DNA of 64,000 bases. Origin: Spirochaetota bacterium (lineage in GTDB: Bacteria > Spirochaetota > Leptospiria > Turneriellales > Turneriellaceae). Position 1 is the first letter of the stretch. Every line of letters begins with the position of its first letter. The stretch spans positions 31,614 to 95,613 of the forward strand of contig JBMOPL010000006.1 of NCBI GenBank assembly GCA_049323535.1, written 5' to 3'. Both the position numbers and the translations under genes were made by a program. The notes below the pieces were generated by a model. The model was not told the origin of the DNA and did no database searches. It saw nothing but the letters and a program-made list of their open reading frames with translations. Of this stretch, positions 12,455-61,862 are shown piece by piece.

Positions 12455-13402
12455 TTATTCCGCCTCGTACATCGCCAGGTTGCGCTTTGAACCTGCCGGG
12501 ACCGGCAGGGTGTCGCCTTTGCGGATGGGTTGCTGTTCGGCCTTTATCATTTCGCGTACATAGTTAGGCAGCGCAAACAGCGAGTGGTGTGTGTCTTCGT
12601 TATAGAAGTGCAGCTCGGGCAGCTGGTGTTTAGCGAGGCGCTCGATAATCGTCTTCTTGTCGACGCTGGTTGGGTCCTGTGTCTTGCTGGCGAGCGCAAA
12701 GCCCCAGAGCGTACCGTACAATGGGACATAATTTGTCATCGGTTTGACGATCGGGAAGACCGATTTCAGCGTCCAGTACAGCTTGCTGAAGAGTTCAGGC
12801 CGCGTGATGGGAGATTCGATGTGCAGGCTCAGGATTCCCTTGTCGCTCAGGATCTTGCTGATCTGCGCGTAGAATTCGTGTGTGTAAAGTTCGATCGATG
12901 GCCCGAACGGGTCGGTCAGGTCGAGCAGCACCTGGTCGAAAGTTTCTTTGGTTTCGAAAACATACTTGATGCCGTCCTCAATTCGCAGCTCGAGTTTGGG
13001 GTCATTGAACGCATTACCGCAGATGCCCGGAATGTGCTCTTTGCAGGCATCGACGACGCCGCCGTCGAGTTCGACCATGACGACCTTTTCGATGGTCTTA
13101 TACTTGAGAAATTCTTCGGCTGCACCGCCATCGCCACCGCCAATGACGAGCGCCTTTTTCGGGCCGTCGATGGTGATGCCGCCAACGTGTGCCAGCGGTT
13201 CATGGTAGAGAAATTCGTCGCGGTCAGAGGTCTGGAAAACGCCGTCAAGGCGGAGCATGCGCCCGTGGCGCGGAAGCTCGTGTACTTCCAGATCCTGGAA
13301 CTTCGTGCGGGTCTCGTAGAGTTTCTTATTTGTTCTGAAGAAATACCCCATGTCGGGGTTGAGCGTTTCGACGAGGATGTCGTCGCGTTTCTTATCTGCC
13401 AT
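12455..13402 (-). CDS. speE: Spermidine synthase (polyamine aminopropyltransferase)
   Basis: LRLDGVFQ, DEFLYHEPLAH, LVIGGGDGG, VELDGGVV, LLDLTDP. Confidence 0.93.
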   Translation of the reverse strand: MADKKRDDILVETLNPDMGYFFRTNKKLYETRTKFQDLEVHELPRHGRMLRLDGVFQTSDRDEFLYHEPLAHVGGITIDGPKKALVIGGGDGGAAEEFLKYKTIEKVVMVELDGGVVDACKEHIPGICGNAFNDPKLELRIEDGIKYVFETKETFDQVLLDLTDPFGPSIELYTHEFYAQISKILSDKGILSLHIESPITRPELFSKLYWTLKSVFPIVKPMTNYVPLYGTLWGFALASKTQDPTSVDKKTIIERLAKHQLPELHFYNEDTHHSLFALPNYVREMIKAEQQPIRKGDTLPVPAGSKRNLAMYEAE

Positions 13403-13489
13403 GGGTCAGATTGCCCCTTTGAGACAGGGCGCAAACCCAAACCCGGCCAGGGTTTGCAGGGCCGCCTGGGGCAGCCCTGCTGCCAGTGC

Positions 13490-13777
13490 TTACTTATCGC
13501 ATTTCCAGGCGACAGCTTTCGCTGTGTACTGTTTGCCGAGTTTTGGGTGTGTGTGAGAGGTGATGCTGAGGAACACCTTGTCAGCGTTCATTTCTTTCGC
13601 CTGCTCGCGCACGGCCTTCTCAGCGGTTTCGCGATCCATCTGCATGAACTTGTTGCCTGCTGCGACTTCACCGAGACGCTCGCAACCTTTTACATCGTTT
13701 TCGCTGGGCACTACCTGTACCGAAGCCACAGAACCTGCAAATGCCATTGCCGCCAGAACCATCATTGTCTTTTTCAT
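13490..13777 (-). CDS. Small secreted protein, DUF4156-like; paralog of 61526-61810
   Basis: GGAGG SD, signal peptide MKKTMMVLAA, two Cys (GCERLGEV, AWKCDK). Confidence 0.7.
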   Translation of the reverse strand: MKKTMMVLAAMAFAGSVASVQVVPSENDVKGCERLGEVAAGNKFMQMDRETAEKAVREQAKEMNADKVFLSITSHTHPKLGKQYTAKAVAWKCDK

Positions 13778-13947
13778 GTTGTCCTCCAGTGATACCCGCG
13801 GTATCTTTTTTTGGCGGGGGATTTGTTCTTGTTTTGTGCCCGCCGCCGTTCGAGGGTTGTGCCCTCTTGTTGATCTGAATATCGCCCATTTTCGGCGATT
13901 TGTCATCAGAGCCGCCACGGTATTATCTGCGTGTTACTACGGAGTTT
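13778..13947 (-). promoter_or_regulatory. Conserved structured 5' leader, copy 1 (candidate cis-regulatory RNA and/or promoter)
   Basis: Aligns with 61357-61525 at about 70-75% identity by eye over the first ~90 nt; shared hairpins; near-identical distance to ATG. Confidence 0.6.
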
Positions 13948-14111
13948 CGTAACTTCTGGAGCTCCGCCGCGTTACTTTTGGGCTGTAAATGGCAGAAAAT
14001 GCGCCGAGGCTCATGCGGTGCCTGTCTGATGGGACGTTCTTCCAGATGTGTTCGTGGCAGGTTTGGCGCAATGTCGTTCGACACGTGTGGGGATATTCAG
14101 TTTTTGGAGCG

Positions 14112-15116
14112 ATGCGTTTTTGGGGATGGGGATTCACATTTTTTCTCGCGGCTTTAGTACCTACCAGCTGCAGTAACAGCTGGGGCAAATTCTGGGAGAT
14201 CCAGGGCGAAGATGCCACCGCCAAATGCCGCGGTGCCGTATCGGGCGATTCGATCAGCATGATCTGCGTGCCGGCGAACACGACGGGGTTTAGCCGGGGT
14301 TGGGCGGGGCTCGGCACGCCGATACATACCGTGGCTTCTATTTCCAGTTTCGCCATGGGTAAATATGAGGTCAAATACGCAGAGTGGGAAATCGTTCGCC
14401 TCTGGGCAATTAGCAATGGCTATACTTTCGCCAATGTTGGCGTACAAGGTGACGGCGCTGGCACTACTGATCAGCATCCTGCAACCAGCATGAACTGGCG
14501 GGACATGGTGATCTGGTGCAACGCGGCATCACAAAAAAACGGCCTAACCCCCGTATATTACACCGATGCGGCTTTCACAACCCCGATGAAGATTGCGACG
14601 AATAATGCACTCAGCGGCGCGACAACTGTTGCCGGGGGTGAGGACAATCCGTATTTCCTCTGGTCGGCAAATGGTTATCGCCTACCGACAAGTGCCGAAT
14701 ACGAATATGCAGCCCGCTATGAGAATGCCTCAACATTCACGCGCGGCGATGCACCTAGCGGCTGGAAAGATAACAATCCTGCCAACGGAGCTATCGATCA
14801 GGCTGAAAAGAATGCCGTCTCGTGGGATAACAACAGTTCACCGGGAAATACTCAACCGGTAGGTCAGTTGCAGCCGAATGCGCTGGGTTTCTATGACCTG
14901 AGCGGAAATGTATTTGAATTGTCGAATGACTGGTTAGCGACATATGTTGACGCATCACCCTTTACCGATGCCGATAGTAAAGGTGGGGCAACAGGCACGA
15001 ACCGTGAGGTGCGTGGAGGTGGTTTCGGTGGTGAATTTGGGACTGCTGCCCGGGGAAGTACAGTACCCGATGCCGGTGCGAACGAACGCGGCTTTCGCGT
15101 TGTCAGGCGTCCTTAG
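14112..15116 (+). CDS. FGE-sulfatase (formylglycine-generating enzyme-like) domain lipoprotein
   Basis: Lipobox-like VPTSC; MGKYEV, RLPTSAEYEYAAR, NALGFYDLSGNVFE, RGGGF, GFRVV. Confidence 0.85.
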   Translation: MRFWGWGFTFFLAALVPTSCSNSWGKFWEIQGEDATAKCRGAVSGDSISMICVPANTTGFSRGWAGLGTPIHTVASISSFAMGKYEVKYAEWEIVRLWAISNGYTFANVGVQGDGAGTTDQHPATSMNWRDMVIWCNAASQKNGLTPVYYTDAAFTTPMKIATNNALSGATTVAGGEDNPYFLWSANGYRLPTSAEYEYAARYENASTFTRGDAPSGWKDNNPANGAIDQAEKNAVSWDNNSSPGNTQPVGQLQPNALGFYDLSGNVFELSNDWLATYVDASPFTDADSKGGATGTNREVRGGGFGGEFGTAARGSTVPDAGANERGFRVVRRP

Positions 15117-36268: not shown

Positions 36269-39200
36269 TGATTCGCCGAATTATCACCTTCTCGGCTGAG
36301 AACCGCGCGCTGACGCTGTTTCTCACTCTCGTGGTCACGCTTGGCGCGTGGTATGCAACGAAGACAATCCGCCTCGATGCGCTGCCCGATCTGTCAGATA
36401 CGCAGGTAATCGTCTACACGCGCTGGGACAGAAGTCCCGACGTCGTCGAAGCGCAGGTGACGACGCCGATCGTGCGTGCGCTGATGGGAGCGCCTAAAGT
36501 GAAGACGATACGCGCCGTGACCGACTATGGCACGTCGTTTGTCTACGTCATCTTCGACGATGCGACTGACCTCTATTGGGCGCGCTCGCGCATCAGCGAA
36601 TACATGGACCGCATTCGCACGCTGATTCCTGCCGATGCGCGGCTTGAGCTGGGTCCCGATGCGACAGGACTGGGTTGGGTTTACCAGTACGTGCTGCGCG
36701 ACAAGACAGGCAAGAACGACCTCGAGCGCCTGCGTTCGCTGCAGGATTTCACCATCAAGTACCAGCTGCTTTCGGTGCAGGGTGTCGCCGAGGTCGCGAG
36801 TGTCGGTGGTTTCCAGAAGCAGTACCAGATCACCCTCGACCCGGTACGGCTGCGCGCATCGGGAATTTCCCTTAACCAGGTAATCGACAAAGTGCGCGGC
36901 AGTAATTCGCAGGCGGGCGCCCGCCTCCTGGAAATCGGCGGTGCCGAGTACATGGTGCGCAGCCAGGGTTACCTGAAGAATAAGTCCGAAATGGAACAGA
37001 TTGGCGTCGGTACTGACGATGCCGGCAACGCCATCACGCTGCGCTCGCTGGCCACGGTTACTGAAGCACCCGCGTTGCGCCGCGGTGTGACAGATTTCAT
37101 GGGCGAAGGTGATGCAGTCTCGGGTGTCGTGGTCATGCGGCAGGGAGGGAACGCGTATGACGTGATCGGCCGCGTGAAGCAGAAAGTCGAAGAGATGCGG
37201 AAATTTCTGCCCGAGGGCATTGAACTTATTCCCGTCTACGACCGTTCGGAGCTTATCGAGCACAGTATCTCTAACCTGAAAACCAAGCTGGTGGTCGAAA
37301 TGCTCATTGTAGCGCTGGTGATACTCATTTTTCTCAACCATTTTCCTTCGGCGATCGTACCCATTCTGACGATACCCATTGCCGTGCTTGTTTCTTTTAT
37401 TCCGCTGAACTTGTTCGGCGTCAGCTCGAACATCATGTCGCTTGCGGGCATAGCGATTTCGATCGGCGTGCTGGTCGACGGTGCCATCGTCGAAGTAGAG
37501 AACGCCTACAAAAAACTCGAAGAGTGGCAGCGCAATGGCATGAAAGAGGATTACCACAAGATACGCCTCGAAGCACTGCTCGAAGTTGGTCCCTCCGTAT
37601 TTTTCTCGCTGCTCGTCGTTGCGGTAGCTTTCTTACCGATCTTTACTCTCGTCGACCAGGAGGGCAGACTCTTCAAACCGCTCGCCTACTCGAAGAACCT
37701 GGCAATGGCAGTTGCGGCGCTGCTGGCGATCACAGTAGATCCAGCGATGCGCATGCTTTTTTCGCGTCCGCCAACCCCACCCCCGGCCCCTCCCCTATTA
37801 GGGGAGGGGGGCCCGAAGGGGGGGAGGGGGCTCGTACCGAAGGCTCTGCACGGAATCGGCTCGCGGATCACGCATACCATTTTGGTAGGAAAATACCACC
37901 GCGAAGAAGACCATCCGATCAGCCGGCGCCTCATTGCGCTCTATGGACCGGTCTGTCGCTACACGCTGGAGCACCCGAAGCGCATCATTGGTGGTGCCGT
38001 GGTGCTGATGCTCTCGATGGTTCCGCTCTACCTGCACCTCGGGCATGAATTTTTTCCTGCGCTGTATGAAGAATCTCTGCTCTATATGCCTGTCACTGCA
38101 CCTGGCATAGCTCCCACTGAAGCTGCGCGACTTTTGAAACTGACTGACCAGATCATCGCTTCGCACCCGGAGGTGGAGCGCGTGTTTGGCAAAGCCGGTC
38201 GCGCCGATTCGGCGACTGACCCCGCACCGCTTTCGATGTTTGAAACCAACATCATGCTCAAACCCCGCTCGCAGTGGACCGTCAAAACCAAAGAGGAGCT
38301 TATTGTGAAACTCGATGCATCGCTGAAGATTCCCGGTCTTACGAATGCATTCACGATGCCTATTCGTGCGCGCGTCGATATGCTCTCGACCGGAATGCGC
38401 ACGCCGCTGGGCCTGAAGATCCAGGGGCGCAGCATCGCAGACATCGACAGAGTTGCGGTGAAAGCAGAACAGGCGCTGAAGAACCTGCCCGGTGTGCGCA
38501 GCGTCGTGGCAGAGCGCACGGCCACGGGCTACTACGTTGATATTGAACCGCGGCGGCTCGATGTCGCGCGCTATGGTCTGTCGATCGACGACGTGCAGCT
38601 GTTTGTGCGCACGGCGCTCGGCGGCGAAGAGATCACGCAAACGATTGAAGGTGTGCACCGCTATGGCGTCATTGTCCGCTACCCGGCGACATGGCGCAAT
38701 TCTGTCGAAGCCCTGCGCCGTTCTCCGCTCAGCATTCCCGGTGGGGGTCAGGTGCCGCTGAGCGCCATCGCCGATGTTTCGCTCAAAACCGAACCGGGTA
38801 TGATTCGCAATGAAAACGGCTTTCTCACCAGCTACGTCTTCATCGATACCAGCAGCGCCGACATCGCCGGTGTTGCCGGGCGCATTGAGAGCGAACTGGC
38901 AAAGCTGCAGCCGCTGCCAGAGGGCGTAGCGATCGCTCTCAGCGGGCAGTACGAAAATATCATTCGCGTGCGCGATCGCCTGCTGGTGGTGGTTCCGATC
39001 ACCCTGATGCTGATCGTCTTCTTGCTCTATGCAAACACCCGCTCGTGGCCCAAAACCGCGATCGTGCTGCTCGCGGTCCCCTTTTCCATGCTCGGCGCGC
39101 TGCTCTTGCTTACGGCGATGGGCATACAGATTTCGATTGCCGTCTGGGTGGGATTAATCGCGCTCATGGGCCTCGATGCCGAGACGGGAGTTTTTATGCT

Positions 39201-51208: not shown

Positions 51209-51250
51209 TTAACCCCACCCCTGCCCCTCCCCTGTTAGGGGAGGGGTTAA
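51209..51250. repeat. Second copy of the GC-rich palindromic element, forming the MFS C-terminus and stop codon
   Basis: TTAACCCCACCCCTGCCCCTCCCCTGTTAGGGGAGGGGTTAA; read on the minus strand as LTPPLTGEGQGWG*. Confidence 0.75.
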
Positions 51251-61285: not shown

Positions 61286-61356
61286 CGGGATCTACGGCTC
61301 TGCCATTGTCTCAACCGTAAAGTCTCATTTCAGGTGATCCGGCGCCATTACCCCCA

Positions 61357-61525
61357 AAACTCCGTAGTACCACTCAGATTTTCCGGTGTCGGCGCTGATG
61401 ACAAACGCAAAGACATGTGCTAAGTTCTGATCACCAAAAGGGCAGTCCCTTTCGGTGAGGGTGCGACAAGAAAGGACCTCGTGTCCGTCGCACCCAAGAT
61501 ACCTCGTGTATCATTGGAGGAAAAG
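61357..61525 (+). promoter_or_regulatory. Conserved structured 5' leader, copy 2
   Basis: Aligns with the reverse complement of 13778-13947; hairpins with compensatory changes. Confidence 0.6.
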
Positions 61526-61810
61526 ATGAAAAAGACAATTCTCGCTGTAACAGCACTGGTGTTTGTAGGAGCTCTGGCTTCGGTAGAAGTAATACCCGCA
61601 GACGCAAAACTGACCAACTGTGAAAACCTGGGTAAAGTACAGGCAGGTGACCGCTTCGCAGGCCTCGATCGCGAAACCGCAATCAAAGCCGTTAAAGAAG
61701 AAGCGAAAGCTATGAACGCGAACAAAGTGTTCCTGGATGTAACCTCGTACAACCACCCGAAACTCGGTAAGCAGTACGTCGCCAAGGCAAGCGCCTGGAA
61801 GTGCAACTAA
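61526..61810 (+). CDS. Small secreted protein, DUF4156-like; paralog of 13490-13777
   Basis: GGAGG SD, MKKTILAV signal, NCENLGKV, HPKLGKQY, AWKCN. Confidence 0.72.
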   Translation: MKKTILAVTALVFVGALASVEVIPADAKLTNCENLGKVQAGDRFAGLDRETAIKAVKEEAKAMNANKVFLDVTSYNHPKLGKQYVAKASAWKCN

Positions 61811-61830
61811 TTGCCCGTGACGATTCGATA

Positions 61831-61862
61831 GCACCCGCCTCTTCTGGGCGGGTGTTTTTTCT
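61831..61862 (+). terminator. Rho-independent terminator
   Basis: CACCCGCC-TCTTCTG-GGCGGGTG followed by T6. Confidence 0.8.

Follow-up and report, generated by a model that had tools for sequence, protein, structure and literature searches.

Two small secreted-protein genes with related upstream regions

The window analyzed here is a stretch of 64,000 nt from a Spirochaetota bacterium of the family Turneriellaceae (GenBank assembly GCA_049323535.1, contig JBMOPL010000006.1, positions 31,614 to 95,613 of the forward strand); coordinates are those of the window unless a contig is named. It carries two genes for small secreted DUF4156-like proteins, one of 95 aa at 13490..13777 on the minus strand (copy 1) and one of 94 aa at 61526..61810 on the plus strand (copy 2), the latter followed by a terminator-like hairpin at 61830-61856. 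The subject of this work is the pair of regions directly upstream, 13947-13778 (-) for copy 1 and 61357-61525 (+) for copy 2, which the initial annotation described as two copies of a structured RNA leader of about 170 nt, riboswitch-like or protein-binding. Both stretches are present and aligned as claimed, each in front of a paralogous secreted-protein gene, and all the sequence blocks and hairpins named at the time occur in both copies. Our comparison divides each region into a conserved 5' block of 78 nt (module A) and a predicted 5' untranslated region (5'UTR; module B).

The two proteins share 59% amino acid identity. Each gives a weak match to Pfam PF13698 (DUF4156), under the curated cut-off, and neither a PDB profile search nor NCBIfam returned a match. 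Whereas two paralogs had been counted in the window, the assembly (4.0 Mb in 25 contigs, here G000) has five: c1 and c2, which are copies 1 and 2, c3 on contig C10, c4 on contig C19 and c5 on contig C5. The c2, c3 and c4 proteins are 98% identical. In a protein search of 61 related genomes the paralog family was detected in 14 genomes of five genera, all within one taxonomic family, and it was not found in other families of the order or class. A literature search on DUF4156 and Turneriella regulators returned nothing relevant, and nothing on either module.

A conserved 78-nt block with promoter architecture

The 78-nt blocks, 13948-13871 (-) and 61356-61433 (+), align without gaps and are identical at 56 of 78 positions (72%). 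The corresponding values are 65% for the coding sequences, 62% for third codon positions of identical residues, 57% for four-fold degenerate sites and 53% for the sequence upstream of the block. The block is thus conserved beyond neutral expectation and, judged by these comparisons, is under selection. The initial estimate that the leaders are at least as similar as the genes behind them was correct, and it extends to synonymous sites.

A near-identical block precedes four of the five paralogs in G000, and the c5 version is more divergent. We aligned 27 upstream regions from the 14 genomes and five genera by an iterated ungapped profile and, as an independent method, by MAFFT; both gave the same 78-column alignment without a single indel. 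Information content peaks at columns 5-11, 16-25, G31, 40-47 (cTGATGAC), 65-71 and A78. A sequence-only covariance model of the block (R1), run on all 20 genomes of the family, found it at DUF4156-like paralog loci and nowhere else.

From 5' to 3', the block consists of a quasi-palindrome (AAACTCCGTA-N4-TACGCAGATTT), a -35 box ATGACA, a 17-nt spacer, a -10 box and an A 7 nt downstream. When the E. coli consensus hexamers were slid across the 27-sequence alignment, the best match to TTGACA fell at column 43 and the best match to TATAAT at column 66, which gives the 17-nt spacer. At the -10 position, A2 and T6 are present in 18 of the 27 sequences, and 77% of weighted sequences carry A at column 78. 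The -10 hexamers vary (GATATT, TAAGTT, TATGTT, TATAAT, TAAATT, GATAAT and TATCTT were seen) at a position that is fixed throughout. Sigma-70-type hexamers separated by a distance in the 16-18 bp range, with a purine 6-8 nt downstream, are therefore in place, and on this comparative evidence the block is a sigma-70-type promoter with spacing invariant in 27 loci.

In copy 1, the -35 hexamer ATGACA lies at 13901..13906 (-) and, after the 17-nt spacer, the -10 hexamer GATATT at 13878..13883 (-); transcription is predicted to start at the conserved A at 13871 (-), 7 nt past the -10 box. An independent consensus scan returned the same element (ATGACA-17-GATATT, 13906-13878, minus strand) as the sole promoter-like site in 13300-14200. 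The copy 2 promoter occupies the homologous columns at 61398..61426 (+), with ATGACA at 61398-61403, the 17-nt spacer and TAAGTT at 61421-61426, and the predicted start is the column 78 A at 61433 (+). It was missed by the consensus scan because TAAGTT agrees with the consensus at just three of six positions. CAGATT at columns 20-25 was rejected as an alternative -10 box, since it is inside the palindrome and has no conserved -35 partner.

The conserved sequence blocks that had been read as RNA-leader signals are real, and they map to DNA elements: the palindrome arms account for AAACTCCGTAGTA and CAGAT, and the -35 region for CGGCnCTGATGACAAA. TTCnGATCA, which is likewise present, covers the last part of the -10 box together with the start region and coincides with no RNA structure. 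The conserved blocks are thus predicted to lie upstream of the transcription start, the arrangement that the initial annotation itself had named as pointing to a DNA promoter.

The distance from the block to the ATG, which equals the predicted 5'UTR length, ranges from 13 to 94 nt among the loci. In eight loci 13-23 nt separate the predicted +1 from the ATG, with the Shine-Dalgarno sequence as sole content; eight others have a hairpin whose first nucleotide is the predicted +1. The short predicted leaders fit a transcription start site study of Leptospira, in the sister family, where most 5'UTRs are < 80 bp (PMC5243855).

The operator palindrome and its candidate regulator

The quasi-palindrome has the highest information content of the block. 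In copy 1 it reads AAACTCCGTAGTAACACGCAGATA at 13924..13947 (-), block positions 2-25, and in copy 2 AAACTCCGTAGTACCACTCAGATT at 61357..61380 (+). Its center is about -64.5 from the predicted +1, and T6, G9, T10 and A21 are invariant in 27/27 loci. The half-site is (C/T)T(C/G)(C/A)GTA, with a GTA-N6-TAC core. Copy 1 has an additional half-site-like CCGTG at 13916..13920 (-), block positions 29-33; the left CCGTA lies 22 nt upstream of it. The G31 of CCGTG, flanked by CC, is found in 87% of weighted sequences, and the element may be a further binding site. There are no indels between the quasi-palindrome and the -35 box in the 27 loci, and the operator scores on both strands. A position weight matrix of the operator, scanned over both strands of the 4.0-Mb assembly, identified the five paralog loci; nothing else scored above the shuffled-genome background. 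We know of no published NarL/FixJ-type consensus site that matches this half-site and core, and the operator motif appears to be undescribed.

The c5 gene directly follows an operon whose products are a kinase of PAS-HisKA_3-HATPase architecture and a regulator of REC+GerE (NarL/FixJ) type, and the same kinase-regulator-DUF4156 arrangement is present in another genus. The regulator gene of G000 is at C5:557885-558550. Thirteen genomes contain a full-length kinase ortholog. Each of them also has the paralog family, and in 13/13 the kinase gene adjoins one paralog (three genera, three gene orders), with a NarL-type regulator gene after the kinase gene where checked. The kinase is absent from all six family genomes that lack the paralog; the single genome with paralogs and no kinase is 54% complete. 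Since the kinase-regulator operon always stands beside one DUF4156-like paralog, the paralog family would be the regulon of this regulator, and synteny and co-occurrence make it likely that the adjacent NarL/FixJ-type regulator binds the palindrome. A center near -64.5 is a typical activator position (class I activation). Together with the CCGT(G/A) element near -47 and the imperfect -35 box, this position indicates that the regulator probably activates transcription.

As a side observation, OmpL-like beta-barrel porin genes (PF07642) border the kinase-regulator-DUF4156 locus of G000 (C5:554678-560615, locus L039) on either side, and in genus g6 (locus L040) a porin gene adjoins the locus too.

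The regulated promoter resembles those of NarL/FixJ proteins (LuxR-type helix-turn-helix regulators acting with sigma-70, as at NarL heptamer pairs, the lux-box and the GacA-box), in which an inverted repeat lies upstream of a sub-optimal -35 box and the regulator gene is paired with a HisKA_3 kinase gene and adjoins a target. In some of the genomes studied here the target precedes the kinase gene on the same strand, so autoregulation would be possible. The difference from these systems is that the regulon apparently consists of the amplified DUF4156-like paralogs alone.

RNA pairing within the block

We counted base pairs over the 27 sequences for the helices that the block could form as RNA. 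A trial fold with the palindrome hairpin, a spacer helix and a mis-registered CUGAU helix had 51.5% of cells paired, compared with a shuffled mean of 52.1%. With the CUGAU/AUCAG helix in the correct register and the spacer helix in the other register, the values were 47.2% and 46.7%. No covariation measure of the block helices exceeded shuffles in this alignment, and the RNA hairpin at the palindrome, the spacer helix and the CUGAUGA/CUGA pairing were ruled out on pair counts. Palindrome pair 7-20 is unpaired in 23/27 sequences, with a persistent C.C mismatch. Such a mismatch is tolerable for a protein site with two non-identical half-sites, and not for a selected stem.

Two structural proposals for this part of the leader did not survive the comparison. 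The GCC..GGC versus GCA..TGC change, proposed as compensatory, does not fall in the same register in the two copies and is not maintained in relatives. The supposed box C/D-like kink depends on CTGATGA, which is the -35 region, and on a C(A/T)GA that is present at columns 72-75 in about 4/27 sequences; the proposed pairs are 47% paired, equal to shuffles. The statement that the leader could not be matched to a known Rfam class was borne out: an Rfam 15 search of the window gave no match at the gathering score, and at E up to 10 the matches were at chance level, with nothing relevant among them.

Predicted 5'UTRs of the two copies

The predicted 5'UTR of copy 2 begins with a 5'-terminal hairpin, ACC-AAAGGG-CAGT-CCCTTT-GGT, at 61433..61458 (+). 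Copy 1 has the hairpin GAGGG-CACAA-CCCTC near its 5' end, at 13852..13866 (-), and equivalent +1-adjacent hairpins of other sequence are found in c2-c4 and in several relatives. The GAGGG..CCCTC versus AAGGG..CCCTT stem of the initial annotation is therefore a real hairpin with compensatory changes, located next to the predicted +1. A hairpin in this position may stabilize the mRNA.

In copy 2 the hairpin is followed by an intact 57-nt repeat unit at 61459..61515 (+). The unit consists of stem P1 (GGGTGCGAC/GTCGCACCC), junction J (AAGAAA), stem-loops P2 (GGAC-CUCGU-GUCC) and P3 (GAUAC-CUCGU-GUAUC) and the trinucleotide AUU, and the Shine-Dalgarno sequence GGAGG comes directly after it at 61516..61520 (+). 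Our repeat model R3 (see below) matches copy 2 at 61459-61512 with 74.4 bits (E = 4e-15). Copy 1 carries a degenerate two-hairpin version at 13791..13847 (-), with P1 GGCGGCGGG/CCCCCGCC (ACAAGAA inside) and P3 GATAC-CGCGG-GTATC; its architecture is that of copy 2 and the family, except that P2 is missing and the P3 loop is CGCGG, and it falls under the R3 threshold. The copy 1 Shine-Dalgarno sequence, GGAGG at 13783..13787 (-), is separated from P3 by 3 nt and from the ATG by 5 nt. In all predicted folds the Shine-Dalgarno sequence is unpaired, and no switch is evident. On the plus strand, 13791-13812 (the P3 hairpin plus TTTTTTT) scores as intrinsic-terminator-like. What scores here is the A-run plus P3 read in reverse complement. 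The site, into which no gene on the plus strand runs, is probably incidental.

The c3 and c4 leaders are about 54 nt shorter than that of c2. The c2 leader equals the c4 leader plus exactly 57 nt, inserted just 5' of GGAG, and the unit is absent from both c3 and c4.

The suggestion that read-through of copy 1 into speE hints at a polyamine or S-adenosylmethionine link was not upheld. The speE gene is not a neighbor of the paralog in any relative checked, and its position here is a local accident. The gap between the copy 1 gene and speE (13403-13489) contains a GC-rich hairpin (CAGGGCTGCC...GGCGGCCCTG) that lacks a T-run; co-transcription with speE is therefore possible. The divergent FGE-sulfatase gene near copy 1 is likewise not a conserved neighbor in the relatives checked.

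A dispersed two-hairpin repeat in Turneriella

The third stem with its ACAAGAA and the GATAC hairpin were correctly recognized as structures with compensatory changes. They belong to a repeat dispersed throughout the genus, and not to a leader specific to this gene family. A search of G000 for GATAC-N5-GTATC gave 12 sites, versus about 3 expected, and several of these lie within one and the same sequence, GATACCTCGTGTATCATAGGAG, shortly ahead of the start codons of unrelated genes. The 22-mer, searched with up to 3 mismatches, was found in 9/14 Turneriella genomes and never in the reversed control, and its variants are compensatory (GAUGC/GCAUC, GAAAC/GUUUC, GGUAC/GUACC, GAGAC/GUCUC).

The repeat unit is 54-57 nt long. 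P1 has 9 bp, often GGAGnCGGC/GCCGnCUCC, followed by the 5' internal loop A(A/U)GAnA; P2 has 4-5 bp with a UCCGU or CUCGU loop and is followed by 2-3 nt; P3 is GAUAC-CUCGU-GUAUC, followed by 3 nt and the Shine-Dalgarno sequence. Covariation in these stems is strong. In a MAFFT alignment of 16 sequences, 89% of positions are paired compared with 81% in shuffles, and 11 pairs are changed on both sides compared with 4.6, a number that 0/500 shuffles reached; slid controls pair at 30-50%. In the alignment of 77 distinct copies to the model, 93% are paired compared with 68% and 18/19 pairs are changed on both sides, figures that are biased towards the structure because that alignment was fitted to it.

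We built covariance models with (R2) and without (R3) the Shine-Dalgarno part. They detected 5-28 copies per genome in 14/14 Turneriella genomes and none in the other five genera. About 20 of the 34 R3 matches of at least 40 bits are sense-oriented and stand right in front of a Shine-Dalgarno sequence and a start codon; 18 of these precede an open reading frame of 94-385 aa, and in the remaining two cases the match is the upstream member of a tandem pair. The genes that follow are of diverse kinds (ccoP-, nqrB-, comM-, tlpA-, YHS-, HMA-, desaturase- and anti-sigma-like genes among them), and a functionally coherent gene set behind the repeat was not found.

Weaker copies have other P1 sequences and are often away from start codons. 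They also occur in tandem at periods of 54, 57 or 59 nt, and some of these arrays are inside long open frames. Examples are G002 C1:1652811-1653206 and 3323649-3323813, G010 C1:1420719-1420951 and 1369320-1369640, and G013 C1:482324-482550. Some arrays lie in stop-free frames of several hundred codons and may be translated as 18-19-aa peptide repeats.

In G000, two tandem 57-nt units at C4:176762-176889 (-) separate an ECF-sigma-like gene from an anti-sigma-like gene, and the orthologous site is at G005 C7:365014-365124. The ECF-sigma-like gene ends ...LGKETA, with its TGA within ATGA. An AUG in the units gives an upstream open reading frame of 19 or 38 codons that ends ...NKETA, and its UGA overlaps the main AUG, an overlap that suggests translational coupling at this locus. 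A general role of the repeat as an upstream open reading frame was not adopted: the AUG belongs to the A(A/U)G of the internal loop and is absent from the c1, c2, c5 and ccoP copies.

The unit was also compared with known classes of mobile palindromic sequence. Miniature inverted-repeat transposable elements have terminal inverted repeats of fixed sequence and a target-site duplication. The P1 arms of the unit are inverted and vary in sequence between copies. The GGAG-like sequence at both unit ends could be a target-site duplication or just the periodicity of the unit. A single-copy Y1 transposase gene (RAYT-like, HUH motif HVDHIH) is present at G000 C6:17598-17921, about 14 kb before the window start. 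It is flanked on both sides by perfect palindromes of 32-40 nt (CATTTGCCAGGGATT|AATCCCTGGCAAATG; locus L173, 191-232, 1140-1171 and 1564-1603), which constitute a second REP-like family distinct from the two-hairpin repeat. Mobilization of the repeat as a RAYT-dependent REP was discarded, since this sole Y1_Tnp gene is flanked by the other palindrome and not by the repeat; within 1.2 kb of the gene R3 gave no match (best 4.1 bits, E about 5). R3 also did not match the palindromic element at 37765-37833 and 51211-51246 of the window, which would be a further family, separate from the two-hairpin repeat, in this repeat-rich genome.

The repeat shares many features with the REP/BIME, ERIC, Correia, RPE and BOX families: a short hairpin-forming unit, many copies, lineage specificity, presence/absence polymorphism, tandem clusters, occasional copies in open frames and co-transcription with genes. 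It differs in that its best copies have a fixed sense orientation and end 3 nt before a Shine-Dalgarno sequence, not at the 3' ends of genes, and in that the unit is made of two hairpins with conserved loops and freely covarying stems. By its distribution and form, we class it as a small palindromic dispersed repeat that is specific to Turneriella and unusual in favoring the pre-Shine-Dalgarno position. Among the leaders and riboswitches in Rfam, guanidine-II (mini-ykkC) is an example of a similar layout, with two hairpins of similar loops just before the Shine-Dalgarno sequence and strong stem covariation. Unlike such leaders, the repeat precedes heterogeneous genes, has no alternative pairing that hides the Shine-Dalgarno sequence, also occurs in tandem arrays and away from genes, and gives no match even at E = 10.

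Interpretation of the composite region

We consider it likely that the 170 nt are a composite of a regulated DNA promoter-operator (module A) and a 5'UTR with one copy of the dispersed repeat (module B), and not a riboswitch. The 5' 78 nt would act as DNA, not as RNA. They would provide a 24-bp quasi-palindromic operator with CTCCGTA-type half-sites and a GTA-N6-TAC core near -64.5, the CCGT(G/A) element near -47, and a sigma-70-type promoter (-35 ATGACA, 17-bp spacer, -10 GATATT or TAAGTT) that would initiate at 13871 (-) and 61433 (+). The NarL/FixJ-type regulator of the PAS-HisKA_3 two-component system would bind the operator and probably activate the transcription of the paralogs. The resulting 5'UTR, of about 93 nt, would present the +1-adjacent hairpin first. 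The repeat would follow and stop 3 nt short of the Shine-Dalgarno sequence; copy 2 has it whole, copy 1 in degenerate form.

Several points weigh against this explanation. The start sites are taken from consensus and comparative signals alone, and the regulator was assigned by synteny and co-occurrence. The c5-type subgroup has weak hexamers (GTAATT, GTTATT), and c5-type loci directly follow the regulator gene, so that read-through transcripts containing the block are possible. At palindrome pairs 4-23 and 5-22 the changes are symmetric, which is compatible with an RNA stem no less than with a dimer-binding site. We nevertheless regard it as very improbable that a promoter further upstream drives the whole ~170 nt as a single riboswitch-like or protein-binding leader, with the 5' CUCC and the Shine-Dalgarno GGAG closing a multi-branch fold. 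Minimum-free-energy folds of both regions do close with CUCCG/UGGAG and are better than those of shuffled sequences (z = -3.5 for copy 1 and -3.1 for copy 2), and block conservation above that of synonymous sites would suit a leader too. Yet the sequence upstream of the block is not conserved (53%), the block helices are no better than shuffles, no Rfam family matches, and the gap-free 78-nt spacing followed by a variable 13-94 nt to the ATG is a promoter signature. The outer CUCC/GGAG helix was itself rejected on the loci with TTCAGTA or TTGCGTA half-sites, which keep a GGAG or GGGGG Shine-Dalgarno sequence without compensation. Of what had been proposed as a riboswitch-like or protein-binding leader, the hairpins 3' of the block are retained as real and covarying structures, and the conserved blocks are read as DNA signals without covariation. 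It is also doubtful, if less so, that the block is a promoter whose palindrome is bound by some factor other than the adjacent NarL-type regulator, possibly a repressor or at a negative site. Many HisKA_3-type kinase paralogs are encoded in the genome, presumably with cognate regulators, and only synteny and co-occurrence tie the adjacent regulator to the palindrome. Against another factor speak the constancy of the kinase-paralog adjacency (13/13 genomes, three genera, three gene orders), an operator site found nowhere else in the genome, and a center near -64.5.

For module B, the constant sense orientation and the 3-nt distance to the Shine-Dalgarno sequence could reflect a role at the RNA level and not an insertion preference, and this too counts against our explanation. 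That the 57-nt repeat is a functional cis-acting RNA module, insulating or stabilizing the initiation region or serving as a protein or small RNA target, and not a neutral mobile repeat, seems to us possible but on the unlikely side. It would account for the sense-oriented copies before start codons (about 20 of the 34 best matches), for the loops CAUCCUG and CCUCGUG that are conserved over covarying stems, and for copies within operons, e.g., in the gaps upstream of the nqrB-like gene and ccoP and between the sigma and anti-sigma genes; the P1 arms GGAG.../...CUCC of start-codon-adjacent copies are, moreover, Shine-Dalgarno-like and anti-Shine-Dalgarno-like. The heterogeneity of the downstream genes, the presence/absence difference among 98%-identical paralogs, the many weaker copies away from start codons and in tandem arrays (54, 57, 59 nt), some in open frames, and a Shine-Dalgarno sequence left unpaired with no evident switch argue the other way. 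In addition, G.U (36) is not above A.C (43) among the non-Watson-Crick cells, which gives no sign of RNA-strand-specific selection. A wider proposal, that the unit is a portable RNA module which sets or regulates either the start of translation or the stability of the mRNA in dozens of unrelated Turneriella genes, perhaps via a loop-recognizing protein or small RNA, and was spread by insertion at GGAG sites, we hold to be improbable as a whole.

Neither module of the composite is categorically new: module A would be an ordinary response-regulator-dependent promoter, and module B resembles REP/ERIC/Correia/RPE repeats. Their separation removes a false riboswitch candidate that looked convincing as a deeply conserved promoter-operator fused to a covarying hairpin-repeat copy. 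It also yields a candidate regulon for an uncharacterized Turneriellaceae two-component system, whose operator is defined and whose candidate targets are amplified to five genes in a single genome, and a genus-specific repeat with an unusual placement just upstream of the Shine-Dalgarno sequence. The c2 and c4 leaders, one unit apart, are a natural pair and a ready-made comparison for the effect of the repeat on translation or mRNA stability.

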